Positions 23,541 through 54,549 of a stretch of 64,000 nucleotides of DNA are shown one piece after another. The number at the start of each line of letters is the position of its first letter. The stretch's first letter is position 1. A model generated the notes under the pieces. The model was given only the letters and a program-made list of their open reading frames with translations, had not been told where the DNA came from and ran no database searches. The stretch comes from Mayamaea pseudoterrestris (lineage: Eukaryota): assembly GCA_027923505.1 (NCBI GenBank), contig BROI01000025.1, positions 62,001 through 126,000 of the forward strand, in the 5' to 3' direction. The translations under genes were made by a program, and so were the position numbers.

Positions 23541-26500
23541 CTACTGAATATATGTGTTTCGCAGATGAGACCGAAATGGTTCAACTGCAGATGTCGGAAA
23601 CCACTGCTGTGCTTGTAGGCGACAGCCTGACTGCACCAATTGCATGACTGCAGCTTTGTTTGCAATCATATTCTGTACATTCATTAGTACATGAACTCCA
23701 CAGTCATAATTGTTAGTCTGGGGAGTTACTCGTGCATTCTGTATTGCTATTGGCGCTCCTTGACTGCTTGATCGGCGAAGTCTGTAAATAAGCTGTGTGC
23801 CAAACTCCACAACACTTTCCTGATTCCTTGGGGCAGATCCACGTGGTTGACAGGAATCAAGAATTATCATCAGTGCACCATTCGAAGACATACCATTAAC
23901 AATGACCAGGAGGTTCCAGTGGTTGTTTTCATTGATTGGTATTATCCATAATTGGTTGTGTTGAAATGCCCTGGTCATAACTGCACTGGTATCAGTTGGA
24001 AGGTCATTGTGTAGCCGATAAACGACATAGATATATGTTGAGAAGAAGCATATGCCATCAGATTCATCACCAGCGGAATGCAACAGAACTTCACCAAAAT
24101 GATTAATCACATGTCCTGTAAGTTCCCCTTCAGGCAATAATGACATACAGTTCATATCTGAATCATGGTGGGTGCTGCTGATTTCATACTGAGTTGGTGT
24201 TGCAGCTGGGGATCGCATAGTGATGGCTTGTCGTGGTTGCTTAATGTTTGTGGATGTTGATAGATTGGCAGCCTCCATTTTTAATTTTCTTTTTGGAGAG
24301 GGAGTTACAATGGAACTTGTTTTTAACTGATTCAATTTTGCTGATCGCTTGGCATGCCGCATGTATGGTGTTTGGGCAATAGCTGTGTCACATTGTTTGG
24401 AGCAGTCATGCCAGAAGCCATTAGCATCTATGTCCATACGCCATTTCGTTGCACATATATCTGGACGGAGTTGTTTGAAGCTTGCTCGCTTAAATGAGTG
24501 TGACAAAGGCATACAACGAAGGCGACTGCCAAGCTTGACACGGCTGAACATGACGTAAAGCATTTCAAATGTCAAACGCTTGCTTCCTTTGCATGGTTCA
24601 AGTAGCATGACAATGTAATCAAATGTGCCTCCTTGGACTTTCCAAACTGTGATTGCCAAGGCCAGATCAACTGCATGACACATGTAATCCAGTTTTGTCC
24701 TGCCAAACCGTATAGAAGGATTTTTGCGTGAGTGCTTCCCAATTGGTATGTGTACCTCACTGCGCGTTCCATCAGCTGCATACGGTGCAAGATTTAGTTC
24801 CCGTGGCCATGTATTTGCATTCACACCATCCACGCAGACAATTATGTAGTCAGGTGGGCTTATTAGATTTACAACTGTGTCTGTGGAGGCATTAATTGAT
24901 TCAATGACTGCTAGCCGTTCGCAATCATCTGTCCATGCCACACCAACAATTGTACACTTAGTTCCATTGGCAACACCATATAGCACGTTCCCACTTCCAT
25001 TGTCTAGTATCATAGCTGGAGCTCCAATGTATGCATAGGCAAAGAGTTCTGGATGGTCCAATTCATTATAAATCAGCCCTTTGATTGAATTTGCAATGCT
25101 TTCAGTGTTGCATAATTCACGCTGCCATCTGAGTACCTTCTGCTTAAGCACCTGGCCACATAGCTGCGCTCTAATTGCATTGATGACTGCACGGTCACGA
25201 TTTGTAGTAGTGATACATGTAGCCTTGGTCAACCAGTTATGATCTGATGCTATGTCTTCACATGTCAATGGCGTTGTCAATTGGTCCATGATTGCATCTG
25301 TGATGGGACGAAATGAGGCTTCTGCTTCTGTCCATCTTGTTCCTTCAGGGTAAGTCATTGGTAAAGCACGGAATTCATTTAATCGTAAGCAGTGCTGTGG
25401 GTCATCTGCTGCTCGCATTTGTGTGCTCATGTTAAAGACCTTAAATTGGCGGAATAGTTCTGCTGCCTGCGCTCCAGTGCTTGTCTGCTTGAGTGATGAG
25501 TAAAACACATTGTAAAGATCATGACCATTTGTAATGGATGGCATTTGAAGGAAATCGCCAGAGAGTAATATAGAAATGCCACCAAAAGCTTTTGTTGGAC
25601 TGTACATGCTTCTAAGCCGGCTGTCGATTTGAACCAATGTACCAATGGACACCATTGAAACCTCATCAATAACAACAAGCTTCAGTTTGTCACCTCCAAT
25701 TGACTGGAATATTTGCTCTATCATGCTATTTGCATTCAGTGCTTTGCATCTTGTCTTAAACGCTGAGTCTACTGTGCGCCCCTTTGGCAAATTTCCTGCT
25801 CCAACTCCTGTAGTGCATGTCTCCAGTACTCTTCCTCCATTATTGTGTATGATAGTATCAACTTTTGTGATTACATAAGTTTTGCCAACACCTCCTCCAC
25901 CATGCATCATGACCAAATGTTGTTCTTGGGTGTCAATTAAAGTTGCAACAAGGGCACGCTGCTCACTGTTTAGGTCAGACAGGTCAGTTTCCATGGTCTC
26001 TATGTCATCACCAATGCAGTCATCCATAGGGCCATTATAAGTGGATATTCCAGCTAATGTGACATCCTCACTCTGTTTCTGATCCATTGTGTTGATTCCA
26101 CGGATTATGTCCTGATAGGTCAATTGTTGTTGTTGTAAAGGGGCACTTGCCTGATGAATGTCTGGTTCATATGGCTGGCTTGTCACATTTGTAGCACCAA
26201 ATATATATGTTTCTGGATTGATAACTTTACATGCTGCAGAGTTGTCATTCACGTCTGCACCATGAGAATTAGAATTGTTCCAGAGCTTGGTGCACTTCAT
26301 AACTAGCTCATTTGTTTGTTTTCTGAGTACCATGTCAGGATCTGCTAGTTCACCAGCTAAAGTAAGCAATTCTGATGCACTAAGCTTTCCCTTGGCTTCT
26401 GAATCCTCACTGTTATCATGCATGCCTTCAGCATTCTGGCAAGATTTTTTTTGAAATGTGTGTCCTGGTATATCTCGCCAGTGGTCAGTGTTGCGGTCAC

Positions 26501-29500
26501 GCCATAAACTACTTAGTTCCTCATTACGGTGTGACCGACATCTCATTTGCATAAAGTTAAGTAGCATGCGGTAGCGCATTTTGTTGTGGGTCAGAGCATC
26601 ATACCTATCAAATTGATGAATCATATGTGCTAATCCATCTGCATCAAAGTTAAATTCTGTTGGGAGTGAATGGCGCCATGGAATTAGCATTGTCATGACA
26701 TACTTGGCAAACTCTGAGACTTTACAATGCCAATCATCAACAAGGTCTGTATCATCAGGTTTGTTTCCTGGAAAAAGAGGTATACAATGTCCAGCAGGTA
26801 TGGCTAAACGCATTTTGCATCGGATAGTAGCCTCATATTCGTCATATAGTGGATGGTCTTCTCCAAGAGCAAAAGTTAGCCTAGCATCTCTTCCTTTTGA
26901 GCTAAGTTTAGGCTCGTTATCGGTCACATCAGCTGGCTTATGCTTGTGCTTCAGCTCTACAATGCATTCATAATCCATGTAAGAGTACTCCTCAAAATAT
27001 GGACCTCGGTGGTTATATGATTCTGCTTGTGACAAGTAAACAACATCACCATTCCATAACTTATAAGCAGCTGCTCCACCAATAGCATCATTGCTGCTGT
27101 CATTAACTTTGCTTCCGGTGATTAGCTTGTGCAATGTTCTGTCAACAAACTCATCATTATCATCATCTTCTATTGACGTGTCATTTGGCGCATTGGCAGT
27201 ACATTCGTCTGGGGCATTGTTGGTACTTTTGGTTCTAGTGAATGGCAGGATTGGACTTTTTAGGTATGATACTGCAGCATGAGGATAGATGTAGCGAAAT
27301 GATTCACTAGTAATGTAGGAGGTTGAGCCTAAGAGAGCATAAACCATCAGAGGCATAGACCATTCATGACATCCAACAAACTTGTGACATGTTCCCGTTG
27401 CTAAATGTATTCCTGTGCGTACATCTGTGCCAGTGTCATCTGCGCGACTAGGATACTTCTGAATGTCATCAAGTTTTGCTAGCATCATGGCAGCTGCTTG
27501 CTTCAAAGGTGCCCCTTCTTTACACATATATTCAGTGTAGTACTCTTCCACTGCATTTGATGTATCAAGCCCTGTGATAATTGCTGAGTTGTTGTGACAT
27601 CTAAGTACATTATTTAAACATATATTTGATTCCACAAGCATCTTATCGGTTTCAGGGCGCTGTAGTTCCCATATTATTGGTCCATCCAGATGAGTGCGTA
27701 TTAGCTGACCTTCCAACGGCTCATATGGTTTGTTTATTTGTTCCTTCATGGCTTCACTTATTGGAGTGCCTTCAAGTACTGCTTTTTGATGTGTTTGAAG
27801 ATTGGCATGCTGGTGGATCTTAATCATCAGTGGCTCTGTTTCTGTCTCATGGACTCCGCGAGGCATGCTCAAACGACATCTAGTTAATCCTTTTGGTGGC
27901 TTCTCACATGTAAAGCCATGGACATGATGATTTACTAGTGCTGCATGCTTCTGTCCTGTTTCAATAAATCCTTTATAATCAATTGCAGCATTTGGCACAA
28001 CTAAGTCAGCAGCACGTGGTGGCCTGTCAGTAGCTTCAGCAGAGGTAACTGTGCCTAGCCATTCCCGAACTTCTTGTGATACATGTGTGCATGACATGCT
28101 GTCTAGAATTTTTCCTACCAGTTGTACAACATCAGTGGCAGCAGTAGCAAGACGAGTTAAGAGGTATGGTGTCAAGCATGATGAATGTATTCCAGCATGA
28201 AAATGCAAGCGACCCTCTTTTTGTGGTTCTGTTACTCCACTAATAGCTGCTACTTTGCCATATGCTCCAGTTTCACGCATAGTATGGTCACGTGAGCGTC
28301 TAGTCGTCTCATTAAGAGGGCATCTTAGTATTGCTTCTGTCATTGTATCAAGTGTTCTTTTGTACATCATGGCCCCAAGGGCAGGGCGTAGTCTAGTGAG
28401 TCTAAGGCGTGCGCTGGTATTATCTCGGAAGACAGTTGGCAAAGCCTCACGCTTAAATCCTTGCTTTGTAAGAGGGTTACATGGATTGTTCCATTCAGTT
28501 GTGTCAATCAAAGAATGTCGCAACACAGTTAAGTCTTCAAATTCAGGCTGAGCAGCAGTCACAAAGTGGGATAGTGGCCCATAGCGGAAACGGTATGCTT
28601 TCATTTTTGGTCGGGATGAGGCACGCTCAAAAGGGCTGAAAGGCACAGTTCCACTGACCATAGATACAATGCGACATATATATGAGTTTAGCTTCTTTGC
28701 TTCTGGCTCATGTGGATTATCCTGTGCCCACTGTAATCGCTTTCGAAAGGCATTGGAGTTACATAGCTTTCCAAGAGATGCCATCTGGCTGCGTGTGTTA
28801 ACTGACAGTCTGGCTGCTTTTCGTATGCATGTGTGGCGTTGCATTTGGTTGAAAGCAGTGGCAATGAACAACTGATCGTCAAATCGTCCATCATAAAATT
28901 TGAAGCAGTGCTGTAACTGGTCAGTTTTCATTGTTGATTTTGGAACTCCTTTGCCAAGCATGAATAACTTGGCAAATACAGACCCATATATCTTGTCATT
29001 CTCATCCCATTCAACTAGTGGCTCTTTTTCACGTTCAATGACTATAGGCTTGGACTTTTCTATGGGACTCTCTATCTCTCTAGCACACTCAGATAATGGC
29101 TGCTCATCTTCAGTCAGGTTTTGCTCTTCATTGTCAACAGTATTATCTGCATCTTTGCCTGGCATGTTCTCATCTGATGGTTGCACTATCTTCATGAGGG
29201 CGTTGACAGCATTATTATCTATGCCAGACATAAGTGATGGCTTTGGAAGTACAACAGAATATGTCTTATCAATGGGAAAGGGTTCATCTGATTCTAAATC
29301 TATGCTTTCTGTATCTGCACTGGAGTCCTTGCCGGGGGTACTAAGTGTGGGCATGCTCTGCTTGTGTATGTCAGATATTAACTTATCATTGCTAACGATC
29401 ACAGCTGACTCAATTCGCTCTGCTTCCGCTAGCATTTGTTTGGTAATTTCTGGTGATCTGTCAATTATTACATGAGCAAAGAAAGGATTCTCAAGTTTGG

Positions 29501-30632
29501 TCCACACGTCAAGGTAACTATAAGCAATCTCTGGGTCAATGGAATATAAGCCACGGAACTTGCTCTGGATTTTACGCCACGAATCTGCTGGCCCAATAAA
29601 TGTAACCTGTGTATCGATCCCATTGGAAGTATCTGCTGTCACTCTTGGTAGTACCTTTGCCACTTCAACTGGTCCATTGGAAGGGAATGCAATATGGTGT
29701 GCTGTCGAATGGTTTGCCCGTACCAAAATATCAATATTGAACGCACGTGCAGGCAAGATAGCATTCTGTGTAGTGCCATTGAGCTGGCGCAAGTCACCTT
29801 TTCGTCCATAGTCATGGCCATTTGCTAAGCTGAACTTGTGCGCCTTTGGATTCACACTACAAATGTTGCATAGCACAATGTTGCGGGTAGTGTGAATTAA
29901 ATCAGGATTGAGGTGATAATATTTACCGCCATAAAAATAGACAGACACATGCTTCTTGACTAAATCTTGTGGCAAAGCTTCAATTTTACTAACTTCTTCC
30001 TTGGTTAATACAAATGCGCTATTTAAATTATTTAAAGGGCCAGCATCAACTATATTATTATGATACAAAACTTCATTGCAGGAGGCACAGGCAGCCATTC
30101 GTCCACTTCCTGAATCCTTGGCAAGCGCACTTTGCTGACAGCGAACCATGTCATTCTGTCCAATAGCTCCTCCAATTGCATTCATTACACGAGCAATGAC
30201 TTCCGGGCTGTTGATGTCTTCGTCGTTGTAAATGAAGGCATCTGGGTCCAGTCCAAGCCTGTAGTAGTAGAACAAAGCCAGCTTGGGGTGTAAGGTATAA
30301 TTCTGTGATTTGCCAATTAATTCAATAGTCTTTGCATCAACATGCTTCATTTCAAGTATAGTATTGGCAATCTTAAGTAAATAATCTTTTTCATTTTGTT
30401 TGTCATGCGTTCGTTTTGTGCGTTCGTGTTGCTTTGCTTCCATGTTCAGTTTCTTCAACTCATCAACAATATCCATTTCTATACTTACCTTGGGGCAAAG
30501 CTGCTTACCGACTAATCTTATTACAAAGGATAATGATGCTCTCTTTATCAAACGATGCGAAAGGTCGTGTCTTCGGAGAGAAAGCGTCGACGAGTCAACG
30601 ATCGACGAGCCTTCGAAGAGGTGCGAAACCAC
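23541..30632 (-). CDS. RepHel transposase: HUH-Y2 Rep + PIF1-like SF1B helicase + C-terminal Ulp1/C48 SUMO protease (first ATG at ~30476)
   Basis: FVTAAQPE (motif I), TEPQKEGRLHFH (HUH), YYTEYMCK (Y2); GGGGVGKT, VVIDEVSMV, SGDFLQMPSI, QMRA, ITVWKVQGGT, YVMFSRVK; WIIPINENNHWNLLVI..LDS..QTNNYDCGVHVL (H-D-C triad with oxyanion Q). Confidence 0.95.
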   Translation of the reverse strand: MVSHLFEGSSIVDSSTLSLRRHDLSHRLIKRASLSFVIRLVGKQLCPKVSIEMDIVDELKKLNMEAKQHERTKRTHDKQNEKDYLLKIANTILEMKHVDAKTIELIGKSQNYTLHPKLALFYYYRLGLDPDAFIYNDEDINSPEVIARVMNAIGGAIGQNDMVRCQQSALAKDSGSGRMAACASCNEVLYHNNIVDAGPLNNLNSAFVLTKEEVSKIEALPQDLVKKHVSVYFYGGKYYHLNPDLIHTTRNIVLCNICSVNPKAHKFSLANGHDYGRKGDLRQLNGTTQNAILPARAFNIDILVRANHSTAHHIAFPSNGPVEVAKVLPRVTADTSNGIDTQVTFIGPADSWRKIQSKFRGLYSIDPEIAYSYLDVWTKLENPFFAHVIIDRSPEITKQMLAEAERIESAVIVSNDKLISDIHKQSMPTLSTPGKDSSADTESIDLESDEPFPIDKTYSVVLPKPSLMSGIDNNAVNALMKIVQPSDENMPGKDADNTVDNEEQNLTEDEQPLSECAREIESPIEKSKPIVIEREKEPLVEWDENDKIYGSVFAKLFMLGKGVPKSTMKTDQLQHCFKFYDGRFDDQLFIATAFNQMQRHTCIRKAARLSVNTRSQMASLGKLCNSNAFRKRLQWAQDNPHEPEAKKLNSYICRIVSMVSGTVPFSPFERASSRPKMKAYRFRYGPLSHFVTAAQPEFEDLTVLRHSLIDTTEWNNPCNPLTKQGFKREALPTVFRDNTSARLRLTRLRPALGAMMYKRTLDTMTEAILRCPLNETTRRSRDHTMRETGAYGKVAAISGVTEPQKEGRLHFHAGIHSSCLTPYLLTRLATAATDVVQLVGKILDSMSCTHVSQEVREWLGTVTSAEATDRPPRAADLVVPNAAIDYKGFIETGQKHAALVNHHVHGFTCEKPPKGLTRCRLSMPRGVHETETEPLMIKIHQHANLQTHQKAVLEGTPISEAMKEQINKPYEPLEGQLIRTHLDGPIIWELQRPETDKMLVESNICLNNVLRCHNNSAIITGLDTSNAVEEYYTEYMCKEGAPLKQAAAMMLAKLDDIQKYPSRADDTGTDVRTGIHLATGTCHKFVGCHEWSMPLMVYALLGSTSYITSESFRYIYPHAAVSYLKSPILPFTRTKSTNNAPDECTANAPNDTSIEDDDNDEFVDRTLHKLITGSKVNDSSNDAIGGAAAYKLWNGDVVYLSQAESYNHRGPYFEEYSYMDYECIVELKHKHKPADVTDNEPKLSSKGRDARLTFALGEDHPLYDEYEATIRCKMRLAIPAGHCIPLFPGNKPDDTDLVDDWHCKVSEFAKYVMTMLIPWRHSLPTEFNFDADGLAHMIHQFDRYDALTHNKMRYRMLLNFMQMRCRSHRNEELSSLWRDRNTDHWRDIPGHTFQKKSCQNAEGMHDNSEDSEAKGKLSASELLTLAGELADPDMVLRKQTNELVMKCTKLWNNSNSHGADVNDNSAACKVINPETYIFGATNVTSQPYEPDIHQASAPLQQQQLTYQDIIRGINTMDQKQSEDVTLAGISTYNGPMDDCIGDDIETMETDLSDLNSEQRALVATLIDTQEQHLVMMHGGGGVGKTYVITKVDTIIHNNGGRVLETCTTGVGAGNLPKGRTVDSAFKTRCKALNANSMIEQIFQSIGGDKLKLVVIDEVSMVSIGTLVQIDSRLRSMYSPTKAFGGISILLSGDFLQMPSITNGHDLYNVFYSSLKQTSTGAQAAELFRQFKVFNMSTQMRAADDPQHCLRLNEFRALPMTYPEGTRWTEAEASFRPITDAIMDQLTTPLTCEDIASDHNWLTKATCITTTNRDRAVINAIRAQLCGQVLKQKVLRWQRELCNTESIANSIKGLIYNELDHPELFAYAYIGAPAMILDNGSGNVLYGVANGTKCTIVGVAWTDDCERLAVIESINASTDTVVNLISPPDYIIVCVDGVNANTWPRELNLAPYAADGTRSEVHIPIGKHSRKNPSIRFGRTKLDYMCHAVDLALAITVWKVQGGTFDYIVMLLEPCKGSKRLTFEMLYVMFSRVKLGSRLRCMPLSHSFKRASFKQLRPDICATKWRMDIDANGFWHDCSKQCDTAIAQTPYMRHAKRSAKLNQLKTSSIVTPSPKRKLKMEAANLSTSTNIKQPRQAITMRSPAATPTQYEISSTHHDSDMNCMSLLPEGELTGHVINHFGEVLLHSAGDESDGICFFSTYIYVVYRLHNDLPTDTSAVMTRAFQHNQLWIIPINENNHWNLLVIVNGMSSNGALMIILDSCQPRGSAPRNQESVVEFGTQLIYRLRRSSSQGAPIAIQNARVTPQTNNYDCGVHVLMNVQNMIANKAAVMQLVQSGCRLQAQQWFPTSAVEPFRSHLRNTYIQ

Positions 30633-41700: not shown

Positions 41701-43613
41701 CCAGCAGACGGGTCGACAAAAAGGTGCTACAAGATGCTTGCCGGGCAAACTATTCCAGCGGGTGAAGCATGTGTGCAAGTGGTTAACAGCCCTGCCGGAG
41801 ACACTGCCAAGATTACATACAATATGACCAGTTCTGCTGCTTGTTTGAAAGAGGTTCATGCATACTTTGGTGACTCAATTCCTGTCAACAACGGTGGCAA
41901 TCCAAACCCTGGCGGTTTCCCGATGACTGACAGTTCACTCTCAGGCTGCACCAAATTGTACACCTTCACGACTCCTTTACCTACAGACTGCTCCAAGAAC
42001 AGCGTATTCAGTAACAAGGTTTGGAGACTGGCAGCTCACGCGTCAGTCCAATTCACAGATGGGAATGGTGGTCAAACTGCGTGGAGTGTGGGTAAAGATG
42101 TGAAAAATGGGGGTAGTTGGGCAACCTACTCGGAAGTCATTCTCTCTTGTACTTGTGGGGCCATCCCTCCAGTCACGGCCCCCGTAACGATGCCTACAAA
42201 AGCACCAACAAAAGTAAGCTTCTAATGGTGTAGCATTGTTGCTCAGTTTTGTGTGCTTCACTTGTCTTACAATGCCGTTCTTGCTCACAGATTCCAACCA
42301 AGGCACCAAGCAAAGCTCCAACAGGTAAGCCAACTGGCAAGCCAACCGGGAAGCCAACTGGCAAACCAACCGGCAAACCTACCGGTAAACCAACAGGCAA
42401 GCCAACAGGCAAGCCAACAGGCAAGCCAACAGGCAAGCCAACAGGCAAGCCAACCAGCAAACCAACCAGCAAACCAACCAGCAAACCAACAGGCAAACCA
42501 ACTGGCAAGCCAACCGGCAAGCCAACTGGTAAGCCTACTGCTAAACCAACAGGCAAGCCCACCAGAAAGCCAACTGGTAAACCGACTGGCAAGCCTACCA
42601 AAAAGCCCACAGGCAAGCCAACTGGAAAGCCAAGCAAAGCTCCAACACGCAGTCCTACAGTTGCTCCAACACTTGCTCCAACACTTGCTCCAACTAAACC
42701 ACCAACTAACGTTGGCGCGGATGGCTGCTTTGCTTCATTCACAACTGGGTCAATGACAAGCTGCTACCCTGCCGTTGCTGGCAAGAATTATGGTGCAGGC
42801 CAAGTGTGTGCTGAGCTTTTGAATGGTGATAATGGTGACTCAGTCAAGATCACGTATGATACCACTGGTAGCAACTACTGCTTGACAGAAGTCCAAGCTT
42901 ACTTTGGTGACACAATCCCCACCAACAAGGTAGGCAATCCTATGATCGGCAACTTTCCAGCAAAAGCCACCATGAGTGGGTCTTGCATCAAGACCTACAC
43001 ACTCCAAACTCCACTGGTCCCTGGATGTGTTGCTGGTGCTGAATTCATGAATCGCATTTACAAGTTTGCTGCTCATTCTCATGTTCAGTTTGCGGATGGT
43101 TCAGGTGGGCAAACAGCATGGACCAAAGGCACAGAAATTATTGCTGGAGGAAGCTGGGCAATGTACTCGGAAGCTGCATTGAATTGTAAGTGTGTTGCAC
43201 CAACAAAAGCTCCAACGCGCAGCCCAACAAAACTGCCAACGGGGAAACCAACAGGCAAGCCCACCAAGAAGCCTACTAGTAAGCCAACTGGGAAGCCAAC
43301 TGGCAAGCCCACCAAGAAGCCTACTGGTAAACCAACTGGAAAACCAAGCAAAGCTCCTACTGGAAAGCCAACTGGCAAGCCCACCAAGATGCCTACTGGA
43401 AAGCCTACTAGCAAGCCCACCAAGATGCCTACTGGTAAGCCTACAGAAGCTCCTAGCAAGTCTCCCACGTTTGCTCCAACGTCATCACCTACTGGAGGCC
43501 CAACTAGTGCTCCCACCTCCGAACAAACCTTTGAGCCGCTTCCTAATTGCCCGACTGCTGAGAGTCCCAAGATTCTTCACTTTCAGCCTGACGAAGCTGC
43601 CTATGAGCTCTAA
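38799..43613 (+). CDS. Secreted mucin-like P-T-K repeat protein with four copies of a ~125-aa Cys-rich domain; exons 38799-38874, 38994-39580, 39696-39731, 39862-40029, 40109-40132, 40238-40285, 40378-40425, 40524-40880, 40969-41415, 41515-42213, 42291-43613
   Basis: Signal peptide [25 protein letters not shown]; xPTK/PTGK tetrapeptide arrays; repeated [46 protein letters not shown] domain; splice sites read from the sequence keep the frame. Confidence 0.85.
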
Positions 43614-44051: not shown

Positions 44052-44366
44052 TTTCAAACTGCCATAACATACTCAATGTGCGCCCTATTGCAACCAACCA
44101 AGCTCAATAGACGGTGGTTACAGCGGTGGATATGTCGTCTGAATTAGAACGCGAATATCTATTGTGGTTGCAAAGTTACAGACGATGTAATGCCACGCAT
44201 TTCCATTTTCAATTATGCTCGCCATTCAAACAGCCATAACATACCCAATATGGGACCAATCGCAACCAAAACAATCTCAATAGAGGGCGGTGACAACGGT
44301 GGAGATGACGTAATAATTACGATACGATTTGCTAATGTAGTTCAAAAGTTACAGACGATGTAATGC
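44052..44366. repeat. Degenerate two-copy tandem repeat, period ~174 bp
   Basis: TTCAAAC.GCCATAACATAC.CAAT..GCAACCAA..CTCAATAGA..AAAGTTACAGACGATGTAATGC occurs at ~44052-44192 and ~44225-44366. Confidence 0.75.
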
Positions 44367-44384
44367 GGAACATGTGGCCATGGT

Positions 44385-44595
44385 TGTTGGATCTAGAATA
44401 TATCTTGCGCGCCCTTGAAGCGACACTAATGATTAAGCAGAACAGAGTCAATAAAACCACTTTACTTATTTTCTCCAAGAAGTGATCGTCCTCGATCCAC
44501 TCCTTCGGTTGCCGCTTACCGCGCTTACTTAAATGTGACCGTCTTCGTGACGTCACCGCTGCCGCTTCGGTTTGGGTTCTCATCCATGCTCAACA
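44385..44595 (-). repeat. Copia 3' LTR (211 bp)
   Basis: Identical by eye to 49348-49519 plus 50201-50239. Confidence 0.95.
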
Positions 44596-47500
44596 CACTC
44601 CTTTGGGCCGAGTAGTACTTACTGCTCGAGGCCAGATTCATAACCAGGTTGCGGAGCTTTCCAAACTGGGCTCCCTGCAATGGTTTCGTAAAGAAATCCG
44701 CGACCATGTCTCCGGTCGGACAATGCTCAATGTTGACTTCACCAGCAGCCACGCGATCCTTCACAAAGAAGTACCGAACATTCATGTGTCGTGTGCGCTT
44801 TGTACTTGAGCTTCTGCCATTCTTTTCCAACAGCATTGAACTCATATTGTCTTGATACAATTTCATGTCCTTGACCCCGAAACCTTGCGCCTTCAGAAAA
44901 TATCCTGTCCACAGCAACTGCGGTAGCACATCATGAACTCCCACGACTTCACTCTCCGTCGAGCTTCTTGTTACCAACTTCTGTTTAGCCGACGTGCTGT
45001 ACACTGACCCTTGACCAAGTGTCATTGTTCCACCAGTGTGACCCTTCATGTCTGGGTGTACCGCGTACGACGCATCGACCCACCACTGGACTATTCCGGA
45101 CTGGTCCGCCTTCAGCGTCAAAACCATGTCCACGCTCCCGCGTAAATACTTCACCACTCTTGCAGCCTTCTTATAGTCGTCTTCGTCCGGCTGCTGCAAC
45201 CTCGTGCTCAAGAAAGAAATTGCTGTGCGAATGTCCGGTCGCGCACGCTGGCTCAGGTACAGACACTGCATCACAATTGTCACAAAAATGCTCTTCTTTT
45301 CTTCGCTCAGCATGACTGGATTTTCCGAAATCTGAAACAAGTGACTGGCCGCCGGAGTCGCTGCCGTTCCATCCATGTCGCCTGGCGCATGATGGAGCAC
45401 ATTCTTCACATAGTCAATCATGTTGATTGCTACTTCTCCAGGCTTAGTATAGTCCAATACCATGCCGAGGTAATCGTGTACTTTTCCACGTGACTTGTTC
45501 ATTGGAGTCTCCTTACCGAACTCCTCATCCATCTGCGCGATGAACTCATCCACGACGCTCACTTCAATGTGCGAAATCTTCAAATCATCCACGTGCCACC
45601 CCACGGTGATTTGCTTTCCATTGACCATCTTGTTACACACACATGGATCGTACGGGTTCTTCTCAAAGCCCCACTCGAGCAATTTTGCAGACAACTTCTC
45701 CCAGAATAGTCGCGCTGCTCGCAGTGTGCCGTAAAGTGCCATGAGTAATTCAACGTACATGACTTTCTCGCCGTTCTCCATTGTGACGCAAGGCTCGTAC
45801 ATTTCGCGATCAATCTCCAACAGTAGCTCCACCATCTTCCCAGTGAAACGAACGTGCACCAACTCGTCCATTTCCGCTTGCATGAACGCGCCCGGAACAT
45901 CAACCACAGCAACCTCGCGTCCTTCCATAGCGTCAATGATTGCCGTCAGAAAAATGGCCTCAGTCGCTATCGTGGGAGATGCCGCATCTTCCTTTGCAGT
46001 GTACGCTCGTTGCTTGCGTCCATCTGCACATCCGCGTCCCTTCACAGTTCCGCACCTCTTGCGCTTGAGAAACATCAAATATGCCAGCGCGTCCTTACGC
46101 TGCTGTGGAGTCAAAGTGCACTGGGGGACTGCCTTCATGACGTGCCTATCGTGTAGCTGCTGCATTTCCTTGCGCACTGCCTCCACTCCAGCATCGCCAA
46201 ACGCCTTCAAACCTTGCCGCATATTCATCTGTGCCGTGACGAGTGGCTCCGACACTTCCTCTGCAGCGTCGAGCGTGAACAAATGAGCGAACGATCGAGG
46301 TTTGCGCGCACGCAGGCCATACCGACCAGTGCGTGGGCCATAGCGCGCTTCGAAATCCTCTTCATCTGCAGCAGCTGGCACTCCTTCAATTTCGCCTTCA
46401 TCGGGCACTCCTTCAATTTCGCCATCATCCATGGCCGGCGCGTCGTCAAGTTCGCCGTCAATGGCTTCACCATCCTCATCGTCCGGCACTCCTTCAATTG
46501 CGCCGTCAGCACTATCGTCGTCGTCGCTGTCGTTGTCGTCATCGGTCGCATTCACTCCTTCGCTTCCGCCGGCAGAGTCGTCGTCGCCGCGAGAAGCGTC
46601 GTCATCGTAATCAGAGTCATCATCATCCTCGTCGTCATCATCGTGCCACATGACTGGCTCAGCAGCCTCCGCAACACGGTGGCGGTCCATGAACATGATG
46701 CCCGGATTGGCCTTCTGTTGACGAGCGAGACGATGCACGCGCTCAATGACATCATCAGGCATGGGCAAAGGCGTAGCGTGGCCACGATTCAGAATTTTGC
46801 CCGAGGACAAACTGAGGAAATAAAACCCGCCCTGCACATTACCAGTCGGGCGCAGAGCCAGCGCACCAATCGTGCGCGCCTGCATGTCATTGCTGTGCGA
46901 CTCATGCGTTTGCACATACTGACCGAATTCATACTTGCAATGCCGATTAAAGTCAACTGTCTGACCAGTCACAATGGTACGTGGACTGAGATCCTTCGAA
47001 ATGCCACGCTCGTTCGGAAACGCATTCAGCCAAAACACGGCAGACTTCGTCATTTCGATAACCAATCGTGCCGGCACGTGCTTAAACGGCAACGTGTTGT
47101 ATGTCGCGCGCACCCGTTCCTTCACGACACGGATAAAACGTTCGATTTCGCCAACGTGCTCATCCTCAGACGTCGCATTGAGCGCCACTCCGAGATCAGC
47201 CAACGCGCCAAGCATTGGAGCGAACTCCCCATCCATCAGAGCCGCGACGACACGGAACCCACCGCGTGCGTAAATCTTCAACACAGACTCGATTGCCTTC
47301 AACATAACCGGAAGCGTACGGTTTTGAATCACCTCGACCGTAGCAAAACGAATGCTGCGGGAGAACGTCACCAACATAGGGACCTTGTTGATATACATGA
47401 TGTCTGCACAAAGAGTAACGTCTCGATAGCGACTCATGATAGCCGGTGGAAGCTGCTCAACAATCGCAGGCTTCACCAGATGCGACGCGCGACGTGTCGT

Positions 47501-48630
47501 CTTTCCTTTTAACGAGCCAACATCGGGTCCAAAGATGTGTTCAGCCGCCAGGATGTCGGCTTTTGTCACGGGGCAGTTCGGCAACTGATTGCTAGTAACG
47601 ATGCGCAGGTAATCCTTGAGGCTTGGCCGTCCAATTTTGATTTGCAATTCCCTAGCTCTAACAGCGCGTAAATAGTCATCATTGGTGTAGTTAGTACGGT
47701 TATCGTCTACCGTAGTCAACATCGCCACTCCATCCTTGACATCGCCGCGCTTGCCCTTCGAAAAACTCTCGCATACATACAGCCCAGAGTCAGTCTCGAC
47801 AAACTCTCGCTGCTTACCGTCCGGCTTCTCCACGACGAACCTTGGACGCTCCACGCCGTGCATGAGATACTCCACGGTAAACTTCTTCCGGACTTGCGCC
47901 AAACTCAAAATGTTCGCCAGCCCCTGCGGATACCACCATACCGGACCATAGCCCTCCAAGTCGCCCATCATGTTCGTCCTCACTGTACCAGCATTGCACT
48001 TGATCACCATCCACGTCGGTACCGGGCGAATGTTCGTCAGCATCTTGGCGTTGCAGAACAGATCCACTGTCGACTGATTGTCCAAGAGCACGGCCTTCTT
48101 CGAAATGTTCACTTTCGACTTCGGCGGCTGCGCGAACATGTAGCCAATCTCGTCGTCGTCGTCGCTATCTTCCTCGCTACCCAGCGTGAAGTGCTGCGCT
48201 CCACTAGCCTCTGCAGCCGGCGCACTCTCCGTAGACTCCGTTCTAGTAGGACAGTCTCGCTGCACATGGCCAACCTGTTGGCAGATCCAGCATCTGGGAG
48301 GGTCACGCGCGGTACCAGTCGTGTGGAACGCCACGCCCTCGTTCGTTGGCAGCGTGGCTTCGCCATCTGCGTGCTCACGACGCTGCATGATGTTGTACGC
48401 ATCGTGGATCGTCAACGGGAAGTTGTCATGCCCGTCGAGATAGCAGTTGCGCAAGTGCTTGCAATACCCAGCGTACTCGCCCGTCGCGCCACGCACGAAA
48501 AGCATTGCAAGCTCGAGCTCCTCGGCGGCCTTGATGTCCTCAGCGGTCGCCTGAGTACGGTTGTCATCCTTGGCAATGTTCGACGCGACAATATCATTGT
48601 GCATCGTGACGCCAACTGCCTTCGCGACAA
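44525..48630 (-). CDS. pol: Copia polyprotein: gag C-terminus/zinc knuckle, aspartic protease, integrase, reverse transcriptase, RNase H (open frame running into the 3' LTR)
   Basis: CWICQQVGHVQRDC; LLDNQST; ADIMY..MDGEF..EHVGEIER (DDE); VVDVPGAF..LYG..WHVDD; WVDASY..SSTESE..QDN..ADFFTK. Confidence 0.95.
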
Positions 48631-49320
48631 CTCGGCTTGAATGTCCACGACTTGATCCACAAGTTTGCAGCGCCCTTCGTACGTATGCGAGATCTCCTTG
48701 ATGATCGCCAGCAACTGAATTCCGTCCGTTTCCTCCTCGGCGTCTCGGAACTTGGCATGCTACTTGACACGATCCTTCATACGCTCCGTGCATTGTCCAT
48801 ACAACACGGCGTAGAGTCCAGCGAGGAAGTCGGAGTACACACGCACGCGCTCGACATGTTCTTTCTTGTCGGCCTTGTATTCCTCAAGCATAATGGACCA
48901 GTCTCCATCCGTCGTGTCGTCAGCCTTGACTGGACGCGCAGGCTCGGCAGGAATTGCCAGTTCCACGTTGCGCATCCCCTTGAGCAGCTCCTTGGTATAT
49001 TTCTTGTAGGAGCGCCCGACGAAAGTGATGATCTCGTTCGTCGTTCAAATGAATCCATCGGGATCGCGCGAACCGTTGTAATCGTAGATGAAACCAGCGA
49101 GCGTCGGCTCGCTTCCTTGGAAATTTCCACTCGGCGCACGAATCGGTCCGTTGAGTCTGTTTCCATTGCCGTTGCCTTGGTTCCCGGCACGAGTCCCAGC
49201 TCGAGTACCTCTACGGTGACGGTTACGTCGGCTTCCTTCGCTTGCTGGCAGAGCGGGAGGTGCACCTCCACCGCTCGACGCCGTTCCTGTCGTCGGAGTA
49301 TTGCTCGTCGTCGAAGACAT
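48630..49320 (-). pseudogene. gag: Disrupted N-terminal gag
   Basis: ORFs 49045..49320, 48760..48975 and 48412..48714 share one frame interrupted by TGA (49045-49047) and TAG (48760-48762); a frame change near 48630 is needed to join pol. Confidence 0.8.
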
Positions 49321-49558
49321 TTCTTTTCACTCCCTTCTTGGAGAAAATGTTGGATCTAGAATATATCTTGCGCGCCCTTGAAGCGACACTAATGATTAAG
49401 CAGAACAGAGTCAATAAAACCACTTTACTTATTTTCTCCAAGAAGTGATCGTCCTCGATCCACTCCTTCGGTTGCCGCTTACCGCGCTTACTTAAATGTG
49501 ACCGTCTTCGTGACGTCACTAGCAGGTATGCAACAGAAAGTAGTATCACTATGCCGTT

Positions 49559-49628
49559 AAAAGTAGCGCACCTCGGAATCGAACCAAGGATAACCGGCTA
49601 TATCACCTCTAAACACGCTGCTACTTTT
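49559..49628 (-). ncRNA. tRNA-like Pol III module in the TRIM LTR (copy 1)
   Basis: B box GGTTCGATTCC within a CCTTGG/CCGAGG stem, imperfect A box, closing AAAAGTAGC/GCTACTTTT stem, TTTT terminator; not a complete cloverleaf. Confidence 0.45.
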
Positions 49629-50029
49629 CCGTCTGCTAGTGTACTATATGCTGCATACAAGGCACCATGCACTATGACAAGTAAAGGTATCGCTCTGGTT
49701 GCTGTTTTTCGTGTGCAACCTGCTACTCCCCTAGCTTTGCGCGTCATAGTGCTAACTCGTCTTCCGTTTCAGCTGGCATTTTCGTCTCGCGGGGGAATGT
49801 CACTTTTCAGTTTTTCCTGCGGCGTTTCGGGCTCGGCGCATCTTTGTGCACTCCCCAGGGTCCGCGACTCCCCATCGTTCGTTCGTGACAAACCCGTGCA
49901 ACCAGTGAATTTTTTGCTTTTTCTTCGCTTGATTCGATCGCAACTCGAACCAGCAGCCTCAGTCCAGATCTCTCGATAGGGACGCTACCATAGCAGGTAT
50001 GCAACAGAAAGTAGTATCACTATGCCGTT

Positions 50030-50099
50030 AAAAGTAGCGCACCTCGGAATCGAACCAAGGATAACCGGCTATATCACCTCTAAACACGCTGCTACTTTT
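50030..50099 (-). ncRNA. tRNA-like Pol III module in the TRIM LTR (copy 2)
   Basis: Identical to 49559-49628. Confidence 0.45.
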
Positions 50100-50301
50100 C
50101 CGTCTGCTAGTGTACTATATGCTGCATACAAGGCACCATGCACTATGACAAGTAAAGGTATCGCTCTGGTTGCTGTTTTTCGTGTGCAACCTGCTATCAC
50201 CGCTGCCGCTTCGGTTTGGGTTCTCATCCATGCTCAACAATGGTCATCGGTGAACGGCGTGCGTCGAAGGCAAGGAATCGCACACTTCGAACTTTTTTCT
50301 C

Positions 50302-50328
50302 TGACCACTTGGAAATTCCAAGTGGTCA
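50302..50328. repeat. Perfect 27-bp palindrome (13-bp arms)
   Basis: TGACCACTTGGAA-A-TTCCAAGTGGTCA. Confidence 0.85.
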
Positions 50329-50749
50329 TAGGGTCAAGCTGACCACAGTGGTTTTTCGAAGTTGGTGACGTCACATTAGGATATGTTGCTTCGAAACTTC
50401 GAACTTTGAAGTTTTGAAAAGTAGTCCAATGGGCACCTTAGTGGCGCAAGGACGCCCAATGTGTTCCAAATGCCAGAAGTGTTCCTTTAATCGAGCACGA
50501 GTACGCCACTTTGTGTCAGATAAAGACTGCTTACGCAATAGTTTAAGTTTCCAGTGGCAAAGTCGTTGATAGCGTGTATATAAGCCTGTCGTGACGAAAT
50601 AGTCATTGTCTACATGTTCTTTTAGCCTCCAAGATCAATCGGCCCAAGGATTCAGTGAGGCAATAATCTTTTCATGGAGTATGACCGACTCAGCCTTGAA
50701 CCTCCTCTTCACACTTTCTCTTTTTCGAAGAGTCGGTTGCATCTTAAAC

Positions 50750-53700
50750 ATGATCAAAAGCTCTTTCTTTACCCTAGCATTCGTGCTGGGTGTGTCTAAC
50801 CATGCCCATCTTGTCGAAGCAGGCAGTACGTATGAATGCCAGCGTGATAACGAGGACGCCGCGTGATGGATCGCAAAGTAGTTAGTGCAATGATCCGAAA
50901 TTATATTCTTCTGCTGACTCGCCATTTCGCTCTGCCTACACTACAGAACCTGTCAAACCCTCTCCAAAACCACCAACGCGAGCACCAATTGATAAACCCA
51001 CAAAACCACCGACCAAAGCTCCGACATATGCGCCGGTCCAGATGAGAGCATTTGCTGGCGACGCTTCTACTGTGAGTTGCTAAAATTGGTCATTATACTT
51101 CCGCAAGTCTCGTTTCGCCATTATCGGCAAATTCTCACCATTAGCTCTTCATTCACTGTCTTTTTCGCCTTGCTTTAGCTTGTTACCGGCATTGGCAAGG
51201 CATCGACGGAGTTTTTCATCCCCATGCCAGAGACAGTCTTATTCGAAAAGACATTCAAGGCCATTTCAAGGGACTCGGCTGGACCAGTCAACACTTTGAT
51301 TTCGGTCACAATCTCCACCAACGGCACCATTGTCTACTGGGACCACTGGGAGGATGGCTATGAGAATCCTTCCGCCGCCTCAATGCAACCCACCACGGAA
51401 GTTTGGGGCGACGGCAACGCCGCTAACGGATGCGCACCTCGAAAAGGGGTTTCTTGCACCAACGCAAATGACAAGCTTTTCGCTGGACAGGCCATTGTCA
51501 TTCAAAACGACGTCTACACGCCCCGCGCTGCAACGGGTGCGCCGAGAGTCTACGACGGAGGCGACAACGTCAAGGCCACCTACCCAGTTGCCATGACTCG
51601 TGGCGCTTATCCAGATGCACCAGGATCGTTGTTGGCGGGTGCAGTTGAGGTCTACGACACAAGCTATGGTTGGGGAACGGACTTTTTCTCGCCAGTGGGA
51701 ATCAACGCTGACATTGCGACCGGAGCATTTGGATATGTTGCCATGTACTGTCAAGCCAAGGAGGATAATACGATTGTTGAGTTTAACGGAGGCTCCACCA
51801 AGACTCTCAAAAAGGGAGAGACAATTCTCTTTGAGAATGTCCGGGTCGCCGATCGGGTCACGTCCTCCAAAAGTATTCAAGTTGATGTCATAACGGGAGA
51901 TCCGGGATCAACCTACGAAATGCGCTGGTACGTTATCTCGGAAATGAAATTGTCAGTACAACGCATCACTCACATTTGCCTCTTTGTGTTGCTCTTCGCA
52001 CATATAAAGGTACGCGCTCTTGCCACGCAACATGTACTCAAAGAGCTATGTTGGACCAGTCGGAAACACAAAGGTAGGTTCTTCAGGTTTCTAGTTATTA
52101 ACCAGCGTGATGATATAATTGCACGTTTTGACCCAGCAAATTTTTGGATCAAAAAAACACTTCGACTCAATTTATTTTGTCTTTGTACCGTCCTTGATCG
52201 TTCCAGGGTGGCGTCGGGTACGTCATTTTCAATCCCAACCCATTCAGCGTTACCGCCGACTACAAGTGGAGTGTTTCTGGTACCACCAGGTCAGCTTCAC
52301 TGAGCATTCCAGCTCGCTCCAACCGTATGACTCAATCAATACCATCTGGAACAGGGGTTTTCATTGATTCCGATGACGGTGACATCCTAGCTTTTTCGGT
52401 CATTGATATTGACGAGACTGGCCAGCTCTTTGATTGGGGATTCCCGGTGCAGCCTCGAGACGCACTGACACCGCAGGTCCTCATTGGTCTAGGATTCGGG
52501 TAAGTAGAACTTTTGGTGTCCGCGAGCGTGAGTCGCGCACATTGGTCGAAATATCAAGCGCTTGCTTCATCCACTTCAAGTTATGTGTTTTCGCCAGTGC
52601 TTACAACTGGTAGCCGAACTTTCTAATCTTCTTTCTTTCTTTTTTCTTTCTTTTTCTGTAGTTGCACAAACAATGCATGCGACTATAGAGGCGTGCGGTC
52701 TGTTGTTTGGGTCACCTCGGTGGCCGATGCTGATCTCTACATTGACTACGACAACGATGGGACTGTCGACGAAAAACGTTCAATCAAGGCCTTAACAAGC
52801 AATTTGGTATACAACAGCAAAACCAGAGACATGAGTGGCGCATTCATATTTGCAACCACGCCAAATTCTGGTCCTTTGGGCACACCAAGTGAGTCGGCCT
52901 CTGCCTTTGTCTATCGTAACTCATAACCCCCTGCTTATTGCTCCCTACCATTCATGACTTTCAATTTTCTCACACGAACGATCACACATCACACTTATCT
53001 CTTAACAAAAGTTAACCTTGCAGCTGCCTGGGGACAGAATCCCGATTTCTCCTTCAGTGGTGATGATTATGCCCTTGACCTAGGAACGCTTGTTGTGCCG
53101 TTTCCTTCCATCAAAGTCAGCAAGCACATTGAGCTGACGGGCGACGCTAACGGTGACGGCGAATACACTGCTGGCGACACGGTCACATACACAATCCGCA
53201 TTGTTAATCAGTCTCCGCGTGAGATTGCCGCTGGAGCATTTACCATTTTGGATCCAGTTTTGAGCCAGATGTCCTACATCACCGGCTCTACCAGGTACAG
53301 CTGCGGGCTTGGAGCCGTTTCATCGACCGTACCGGATGGAACGACGGGTACAAAGTTTCCATTGGACGAGGTGGGCCTTCTTTCAAGATGCTTATTGAGT
53401 TCAAAGGGCGGTGAACACGCTGTCTCATTTCAGGCCAAGATTCTTGATACTGCCGTCAACGAGTTAAAGAATGCTGGAATCCTGAAAAGTAATGTCTGCG
53501 GAGATCTTCCGTTTGAGGTCACCGTCCCGCTGGTGGTTCCACCTACAGAGTCACCTACCAAGAGTCCGACGCTTGCTCCATCCCTTCCCCCAATTTCAGT
53601 AGGCGCCAAGGGCTGCTATGCTACCTTCACAACTGGGTCAATGATCAGCTGCTTTCCTTCAAAAGCAGGGCAACATTACAATGCAGGACAAGTGTGTACT

Positions 53701-54549
53701 GAGCTTTTGAATGGCGATAATGGTGACTCAGTCAAGATCACATATGATACCACTGGAAGCAACTACTGCTTGACGGAAGTCCAAGCTTACTTTGGTGACA
53801 CAATCCCTGCCAACAAAGCGGGCAATCCTATGATAGGCAACTTTCCAGCAAAATCCACCATGAATGGGTCTTGCATCAAGACCTACACACTTCAAACACC
53901 TCTGGTTCCGGGATGTGCTGCTGGTGCTGAATTCATGAATCGCGTTTACAAGTTTGCTGCTCATTCTCATGTTCAATTTGCGGATGGTTCAGGTGGGCAA
54001 ACAGCGTGGACCGATGGTAAAGATATTACCACTGGAGGAAGCTGGGCAATGTACTCTGAAGCTGCATTGAACTGCAAGTGTGTGGCACCGACAAAAGCTC
54101 CAACACGCAGCCCAACAAAACTGCCAACGGGGAAACCAACTGGCAAGCCCACCAAGAAGCCCACGAGCAAGCCAACCGGAAAACCAAGTAAAGCTCCAAC
54201 AGGCAAGCCTACAAAGAAGCCAACTGGAAAACCAAGCAAAGCTCCAACAGGCAAGCCCACCAAAAAGCCTACGGGCAAGCCCACCAAGAAGCCCACAGGC
54301 AAGCCCACCAAGAAGCCCACAGGCAAACCAACTGGTAAACCAAGCAAAGCTCCAACAGGCAAGCCCACCAAAAAGCCAACTGGCAAGCCTAGTAAAGCGC
54401 CAACTCAAGTCCCGACTTTACCGCCTAAAATCACGTTTGCGCCGCCCTATGAAGGAAACTGTCCCGTCCCAAGCAATCGCAAGGTTCTGGAATTGTCGAG
54501 TAGCAAGAGACAGGTCGATCACTCGAACCGTCGTCACCGCGAGCGTTGA
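50750..54549 (+). CDS. Secreted multi-exon paralogue: bacterial-surface-protein-like N-terminal region, DUF11-like repeat, one Cys-rich domain, PTGK/PTKK mucin tail
   Basis: Signal exon [25 protein letters not shown] paralogous to 38799; YWDHWEDGYE..EVWGDGNAANG; VSKHIELTGDANGDGEYTAGDTVTYTIRIVN; Cys domain near-identical to 42710-43200; internal exon boundaries not all resolved. Confidence 0.8.

Follow-up and report, generated by a model that had tools for sequence, protein, structure and literature searches.

A recently inserted miniature LTR retrotransposon with a tRNA-like module in its terminal repeats in the diatom Mayamaea pseudoterrestris

The window considered here (64,000 nt of the diatom Mayamaea pseudoterrestris, contig BROI01000025.1, positions 62,001 to 126,000) contains on its minus strand a terminal-repeat retrotransposon in miniature (TRIM), which lies within one long terminal repeat (LTR) of a Ty1/copia element and carries in each of its own LTRs a module resembling a transfer RNA (tRNA) gene. 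An original prediction, made from the letters of the window, had placed an LTR-flanked TRIM at 49520..50196 with a primer-binding site (PBS) at 49990-49979; two identical LTRs of 206 nt bear out the former, and TGGTAGCGTCCC, found on the minus strand directly 3' of the 5' LTR, the latter. The parts of the element are the following.

49520..50196, minus strand: whole TRIM, 677 bp (5' LTR, PBS, 265-bp internal region, polypurine tract (PPT), 3' LTR)
49991..50196, minus strand: 5' LTR, 206 nt, TAGCAGG...CCTGCTA, with 7-nt inverted termini and not TG..CA, 100% identical to the 3' LTR
49979..49990, minus strand: PBS TGGTAGCGTCCC, adjoining the 5' LTR and demanding a primer that ends in GGGACGCUACCA
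49726..49738, minus strand: polypurine-like tract AAAGCTAGGGGAG, immediately 5' of the 3' LTR (read from the sequence)
49520..49725, minus strand: 3' LTR, 206 nt (repeat search of the window)

The internal region of 265 nt was found to be non-coding, and the minus strand is taken as the correct orientation because the plus strand offers neither a PBS of the TGG type nor a purine tract. When the TRIM was compared with the 64-kb window by BLAST, only self-matches were obtained, with no similarity to the open reading frame (ORF) of the copia element. The reality of the TRIM structure at 49520-50196 is regarded as practically certain.

The insertion of the TRIM can be followed exactly, since the copia element that received it has kept an uninterrupted LTR at its other end.

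44385..50239, minus strand: Ty1/copia element hosting the TRIM (intact LTR 44385-44595; split LTR 49348-49519 and 50197-50239)
44380-44384 and 50240-50244: 5-bp target-site duplication (TSD) of the copia element, ATGGT
49516..49519 (left) and 50197-50200 (right), no strand: TSD of the TRIM, TCAC, with the empty site at 44553-44556

The two elements lie on the same strand. The copia 3' LTR (44385-44595, TGTTG...CAACA) is intact, and the copia ORF at 44525-48793 has RVT_2 and zinc knuckle domains. Both parts of the split 5' LTR are 100% identical to the intact one and overlap by four bases, TCAC; therefore, the 677-bp TRIM entered the copia LTR and duplicated 4 bp of its target, and the other LTR, 5 kb away, still shows the empty site of this insertion. 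The copia element came first and the TRIM second. Identity within each LTR pair, that of the TRIM and that of the copia element, shows both insertions to be very recent; the TRIM family may still be active, given identical LTRs nested in a copia element whose LTRs are identical as well. The comparison with public runs was made on Logan contigs from four runs. Contigs joining 49515 to 50197, found in 4/4 runs, represent other copia copies free of the TRIM, with six differences and three gap letters in the adjoining gag region. The TRIM itself assembles as a unitig of 500-510 nt with 0-2 differing letters (0 in three of the four runs), and in one run its LTR end is joined to a different flank, that is, another insertion or a solo LTR. 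A single diverged LTR variant was found, in one contig of 151 nt (depth 2.5, 14 differences in 127 nt); it remains compatible with the B box described below, its purine position having A in place of G and a C-to-T change producing a G-U pair.

The tRNA-like module occupies the middle of each LTR, and its parts are given for both copies.

50034..50116, minus strand: tRNA-like module of the 5' LTR (LTR positions 81-163), 83 nt (ARAGORN at -ps95 and -ps80, with shuffle controls)
49563..49645, minus strand: twin module of the 3' LTR (ARAGORN)
50100..50109, twin 49629-49638, minus strand: A-box-like TAGCAGACGG (TRGC...GG; motif wording from PMC10886601)
50046..50056, twin 49575-49585, minus strand: B box GGTTCGATTCC in the T-arm hairpin CTTGG/TTCGATT/CCGAG
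50030..50033 (LTR 164-167), twin 49559-49562, minus strand: TTTT, one base past the discriminator A

The module, which lies in sense orientation relative to the TRIM, was drawn by ARAGORN as a class-II-like cloverleaf with an acceptor stem AGTACAC/GTGCGCT (6/7 pairs), a D arm that holds TAGCAGACGG, an abnormal anticodon loop of 8 nt containing TAG (Leu type) and a long variable arm of 4 bp, the mark of class II. The long variable arm and the TAG anticodon are mutually consistent, because the class II architecture fits Leu. At the 3' end the discriminator A is followed by C and then by TTTT; runs of four T on the sense strand (T4) occur exactly once per LTR, directly 3' of the module, and are absent from the internal region. 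The perfect B box in a T-arm hairpin and the T4 terminator of the original prediction were thus confirmed, and other parts of its drawing had to be replaced: AGCAGCG, described as an acceptor-like stem, consists of the 3' strand of the D stem plus the anticodon stem of the ARAGORN cloverleaf, and the limits of about 60 nt gave way to the 83-nt cloverleaf that begins 23 nt further upstream (ARAGORN -ps95). A second near-B-box, GGTTCGAGTTG, was observed in the internal region of the TRIM at 49941-49951 (minus strand), about 30 nt downstream of the PBS and followed by GCGATCGAATC; it is possibly another tRNA-like scrap or due to chance.

The module was evaluated with tRNA detectors, folding and motif searches, each against shuffled sequence where counts are given. 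At its default threshold, ARAGORN found no tRNA gene in the 64-kb window, and at 95% of that threshold its only two matches in the 64 kb were the two LTR copies of the module; the controls at -ps95 gave 2 matches in 20 shuffled windows and, separately, 13 in 200, 1 of which was followed by TTTT. Rfam at gathering threshold gave no match in the window, and the Rfam tRNA model had no match at E<=10 on 901 bases (49400-50300) or on 96 bases around the module, near which the sole low-threshold Rfam match was a meaningless 16-bit small nucleolar RNA (snoRNA). The 60-nt version of the original prediction folds with z = -0.26 (81/200 shuffles fold equally well or better), and the 83-nt module RNA with z = +0.89 (166/200 shuffles at least as stable), its minimum-free-energy fold not being a cloverleaf. 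The consensus GGTTCRANNCC was used for the B box; alone, it is unremarkable, with three matches in the window, the two LTR copies included, vs 0.87 expected, and a B box within a 5-bp T-type hairpin occurred in 23/400 dinucleotide-shuffled windows, but the combination of B box, T hairpin and TTTT 6-11 nt past the stem occurred in 0/400. This composite count, together with the shuffle counts of ARAGORN at -ps95, indicates a tRNA-like module beyond chance; because it escapes both default ARAGORN and the Rfam tRNA model and its fold is unstable, it is a decayed copy and not a tRNA gene. The claim of a tRNA-like gene in the LTRs therefore holds as far as a tRNA-type module above chance is concerned and fails as to the gene. 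The module probably derives from a class-II, tRNA-Leu(UAG)-like tRNA gene and has since decayed, and its ancestry from a tRNA is held with good confidence; our reading is that the promoter boxes and the terminator survive in it, and not a working tRNA. The exact 22-nt pattern of the module had no match in metagenome contigs and none in genome contigs.

TRIMs with tRNA-derived sequence in their LTRs are known as Helenus, which forms TRIMp3 together with Cassandra and Ajax (Kojima 2024, Biology 13:119, PMC10886601), and the view of the original prediction that a tRNA-type TRIM was not known to have been described is superseded by that work. On balance, the element is best taken for a recently transposed non-autonomous LTR retrotransposon of this Helenus/TRIMp3 type in a diatom genome, for which the following mechanism is proposed, along the lines suggested for Cassandra and Helenus. 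The module would act as DNA and not as tRNA, its A and B boxes recruiting TFIIIC and RNA polymerase III (Pol III). Transcription would begin near LTR position 81, and the weak TTTT (LTR 164-167) would let part of the transcription pass in the 5' LTR and terminate it in the 3' LTR, giving predicted limits of roughly 81-167 for R and 168-206 for U5. Reverse transcription would be primed by a host tRNA ending in GGGACGCUACCA, the reverse transcriptase and integrase would be supplied in trans by an autonomous LTR element with a common U5 end, PBS and leader, and integration would yield the 4-bp duplications. With an A box, a B box, a sense orientation and TTTT, the anatomy makes a role as Pol III promoter plausible; that the module in fact has a Pol III function is put forward tentatively and with some doubt, and for Helenus itself Pol III transcription is stated to be unvalidated (PMC10886601).

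Several observations weigh against this Helenus-type interpretation and its mechanism. The standard tRNA detectors (ARAGORN at default, the Rfam tRNA model) fail on the module, and its A box carries A where the TRGCY of Kojima has Y. A TTTT directly 3' of the module would end many Pol III transcripts already in the 5' LTR, the diverged LTR variant (one low-depth contig) is without the TTTT, and one sense T4 per 471 unique nt is close to the composition estimate of about one; the lack of other sense T4 is therefore no evidence of selection. A TATA-like CATATAGT can be read just upstream of or overlapping the start of the module (LTR ~76-83), for which reason an ordinary RNA polymerase II (Pol II) promoter of the LTR is equally possible. 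As for the host primer, a degenerate tRNA-3'-end pattern matched 33 loci in metagenome contigs, with an ARAGORN tRNA over the match in one. Most of these points also speak for the TRIM being real and its tRNA- or short interspersed element (SINE)-derived module a merely captured, passive passenger, with a Pol II LTR promoter and a host-tRNA primer: the TATA-like sequence, a module too decayed for either detector and thermodynamically unstable, and a TTTT that sits where it would shorten Pol III transcripts and is gone from the diverged variant. Such a relic is nevertheless rated as unlikely, though a serious competitor, as a perfect B box and a near-consensus A box are found in an otherwise decayed copy, matching the Helenus pattern, the module is in sense orientation and the sense strand has no further T4. 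Far less probable is an accidental B-box-like hairpin in the LTR with no tRNA ancestry at all. The B-box consensus is indeed expected 0.87 times per window, Rfam and default ARAGORN are negative, and the features were chosen post hoc; but the composite with T hairpin and TTTT was absent from all 400 shuffled windows, the 13 matches of ARAGORN -ps95 in 200 shuffled windows included 1 with TTTT, the real match falls inside a 206-nt LTR in sense orientation, and class-II architecture is paired with a Leu-type anticodon.

The original prediction had gone further, proposing that Pol III transcribes the module and that this RNA, cut back to ..GCGCUA and given a CCA tail, primes the element's own reverse transcription. 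The module end with CCA added reads GGUGCGCUACCA vs the GGGACGCUACCA that the PBS requires; the claimed match at 10/12 positions plus one G-U pair stands, but three of the eight terminal bases called perfect are the hypothetical, universal CCA, and only CGCTA of these eight contiguous matches is templated. The best duplex of the LTR with the 12-nt PBS (-14.2 kcal/mol) lies at the 3' end of the module and was equalled in 108/1000 shuffled LTRs; with 15 nt of the PBS region the best duplex was equalled in 68/1000 shuffles and with 18 nt in 29/1000, and the longest exact overlap of the LTR with the required primer (6 nt) was reached in 572/2000 shuffles. The match of module and PBS is not above chance, because 108/1000 and 572/2000 shuffles do as well. 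Moreover, although this copy is very young, its PBS and the complement of the module 3' end disagree at 2/9 templated positions, and the PBS of the TRIM unitig has no differing letter in 4/4 runs. According to the available text of PMC4549124, the PBS tends to acquire the sequence of the primer used, progeny inheriting the primer sequence about half the time; on that basis, repeated self-priming should have made the module end and the PBS identical. Contigs of 5-6 kb in 4/4 runs contain a 36-nt block that spans the final 25 nt of the LTR and the PBS, with four differences at unspecified positions; in the leader that follows, ~15 of the first 18 bases match the TRIM when compared by eye, the internal side extends to 3.7 kb in one run, and the LTR side diverges at once and is unlike the module-side sequence. 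They look like a longer, possibly autonomous relative with the same PBS and no adjacent module, a module further upstream being possible.

Other features keep the self-encoded primer under consideration. If the register is fixed beforehand by the T arm, the last five templated bases (CGCUA) match, which would happen about once in 1000 cases at equal base frequencies, and the idea therefore survives at a low level; in addition, the module and the required primer have the unusual U72/A73 end in common, the acceptor and T stems could stack as a minihelix, and the best LTR-PBS duplex falls exactly at the module 3' end, being marginal with 18 nt. The chance-level complementarity, the universal CCA, the two mismatches to an invariant PBS, the PBS block of longer elements beside unrelated LTR sequence and a module RNA with no stable fold all argue the other way, and Kojima, who weighed the tRNA-like sequence as a primer, found complementarity to the PBS absent in his Helenus families (PMC10886601). 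The self-encoded primer of the original prediction is thus very improbable, and a similarly slight chance is given to the CGCUA(+CCA) match being no coincidence, whether through a processed, CCA-tailed module that primes its own PBS or through a regulatory U5-PBS stem. If true, it would be the first LTR element with a genome-encoded primer of tRNA type, which would matter much more than the Helenus-type interpretation, but the evidence weighs against it and the claim is not supported. Priming of the type known from Tf1, in which the U5 segment GGUGCGCUAC would fold onto the PBS and be cut into a primer with no tRNA involved, is extremely improbable: the segment could pair with the PBS over 10 bp (one mismatch, one G-U) and the neighbouring copia element has a strong signal of this sort, but the duplex of the TRIM is not above chance (108/1000 shuffles), its PBS begins with TGG, a complement of CCA that self-priming does not need, and the 15 perfect pairs of the copia element (0/1000 shuffles) show what a real signal looks like.

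Priming of the TRIM by a host tRNA is regarded as very likely. A U72/A73 end is typical of eukaryotic initiator tRNA, and the A73/U72 signature implied by the PBS suggests initiator tRNA-Met as the primer. The PBS of the TRIM starts with TGGTAGC, like that of GalEa, whose PBS also begins with TGGTAGC and is assigned by its authors to the 3' end of tRNA-Met in the available text of PMC5445492. The one ARAGORN tRNA among the 33 metagenome loci (L026, 1452-1522) is a tRNA-Met(CAT) with a 3' end exactly as the PBS requires, scoring 47 bits in Rfam, which was run on 6 of the 33 loci; it is probably not from the diatom nucleus, and it tells nothing about the diatom, because it lies on an unattributed metagenome contig, in a GC-rich region, and has a C1/U72 mismatch. 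A wider tRNA-end pattern matched 18 loci in viral contigs and at 8 of these fell within a phage tRNA, a result uninformative for the host; the 18-mer of LTR end plus PBS had no match in viral contigs. A literature search with the letters of the PBS returned unrelated primers only, and in the available text of the diatom LTR-element study of Maumus 2009 (PMC2806351) there is no mention of tRNA or TRIM and no primer information, the single 'PBS' there denoting buffered saline.

The neighbouring copia element was considered as the helper of the TRIM and was ruled out by its 5-bp vs 4-bp TSD, its self-complementary PBS site and the absence of common sequence. It has no PBS of tRNA type; instead, a stretch of 15 nt beginning with the final base of the 5' LTR (ATTTTCTCCAAGAAG) can pair without a mismatch with LTR positions ~113-128. 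The pairing sites (49331-49348 vs 49431-49448, minus strand; -21.1 kcal/mol) were matched by 0/1000 shuffled LTRs, and the arrangement looks like self-priming in the manner of Tf1, in which case the start of the transcript would be expected at TCACTTCTTGGAGAAAAT or immediately upstream of it. For plant copia elements of the TAR lineage, self-priming is a published prediction (available text of PMC6317226), and no report of copia self-priming in diatoms was found, no search having been aimed at that question. The gag frame of this copia element (ATG at 49320; 48601-49320, minus strand) has in-frame stops at codons 92 (TGA) and 187 (TAG), and stays coding-like past them, and the long ORF of 1422 aa begins in another frame; the copy may therefore be defective or may use read-through or frameshifting, despite its identical LTRs. 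Outside the element, two tandem units of ~172 nt (44053-44366, 78-84% identical) abut its 3' LTR, and a near-perfect 16-nt palindrome, CTCTGACCACTTGGAA / TTCCAAGTGGTCATAG, with the halves 1 nt apart, lies at 50299-50331, 60 nt from its 5' LTR.

Elsewhere in the window, an ORF of 2363 aa at 23541-30632 (minus strand) combines Helitron_like_N, a PIF1 helicase and a C-terminal Ulp1 (C48) protease and represents a Helitron-type protein. The ORF at 42249-43613 contains long arrays with a 12-nt period (42258-43565, 25 register-shifted copies), and that at 52954-54549 has PT repeats. For a sugar-kinase ORF, the best named relatives are from the diatoms Seminavis, Thalassiosira, Attheya, Conticribra and Discostella, the nearest non-self protein being 66% identical.

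Several known systems can be compared with the TRIM of this window. The plant Cassandra elements likewise have in each LTR a small-RNA module of Pol III type with a terminator, and the logic by which the module would set U3, R and U5 is shared; the module is derived from 5S ribosomal RNA there and is of tRNA type here, and no 5S match was obtained with Rfam on the window (gathering threshold) or on 49400-50300 (E<=10). The tRNA-derived SINEs (SINE2) similarly retain a decayed tRNA head for its A and B boxes, but they are without LTRs, PBS and PPT and are moved by long interspersed elements (LINEs), in contrast to the TRIM with its full set of LTR-retrotransposon signals. Retrozymes of plants are also small non-autonomous LTR elements whose LTRs hold a functional-RNA module unrelated to the LTRs of the partner (PMC10886601; available text of PMC5680766). 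They differ in having hammerhead ribozymes in their LTRs; no ribozyme family was matched in the Rfam searches of the window (gathering threshold) or of 49400-50300 (E<=10). Tf1/sushi and the copia elements of the plant TAR lineage correspond to the self-primer proposal in that the element furnishes its own primer, and differ in that the 5' end of their own transcript pairs perfectly with the PBS, whereas the pairing in the TRIM is at chance level.

The closest correspondence was found with Helenus. In that group, the conserved parts are box A (TRGCY ... YGG) and box B (GGTTC), most copies are deemed incapable of encoding a tRNA, TSDs are of 4 bp in the animal families (Gypsy-dependent) and of 5 bp in the fungal ones (Copia-dependent), and the LTRs generally differ from those of the autonomous partner; tRNA similarity was established with Censor against Repbase tRNA and SINE2 sequences, and the origin was proposed to lie in the insertion of a SINE2 into a TRIM LTR (PMC10886601). 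The diatom element agrees with Helenus in being a TRIM of less than 1 kb (677 bp) with two LTRs, PBS, PPT and a short TSD, in carrying sense-oriented, probably tRNA-derived boxes A and B in each LTR with no functional tRNA, in its 4-bp TSD, as in the animal families and within the Helenus range of 4-6 bp, and in LTRs largely unlike those of its putative autonomous partner, with the PBS region in common. On the other hand, its module is more decayed, with an anticodon loop of 8 nt and a score below the ARAGORN default, and has a 3' end that partly resembles the primer required by the PBS; its A box begins with TAGCA and not TRGCY, the ... CGG end fits, so that there is one departure, and box B is exact. 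Its host also differs, as the diatom, a stramenopile, lies outside the hosts of Table 1 of PMC10886601, which are fungi, six animal phyla and Selaginella, with no stramenopile; Supplementary Table S1 of that work might name further hosts. No diatom element of this kind was recognised in the literature on terminal-repeat retrotransposons and diatoms, as far as titles and the openings of abstracts tell, and no diatom case appears among the Helenus/TRIMp3 literature matches listed from 2024 onward. The remaining novelty is the host lineage, a diatom. If the family is active, it could serve to examine whether transcription of an LTR element can be driven by Pol III, and copies of such TRIMs can inflate or confuse tRNA-gene prediction and repeat annotation in diatom genomes. 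If the Helenus-type interpretation is true, TRIMs with tRNA-derived Pol III modules would span fungi, animals, one lycophyte and stramenopiles, and this extension to stramenopiles would favour repeated independent origins of the design.

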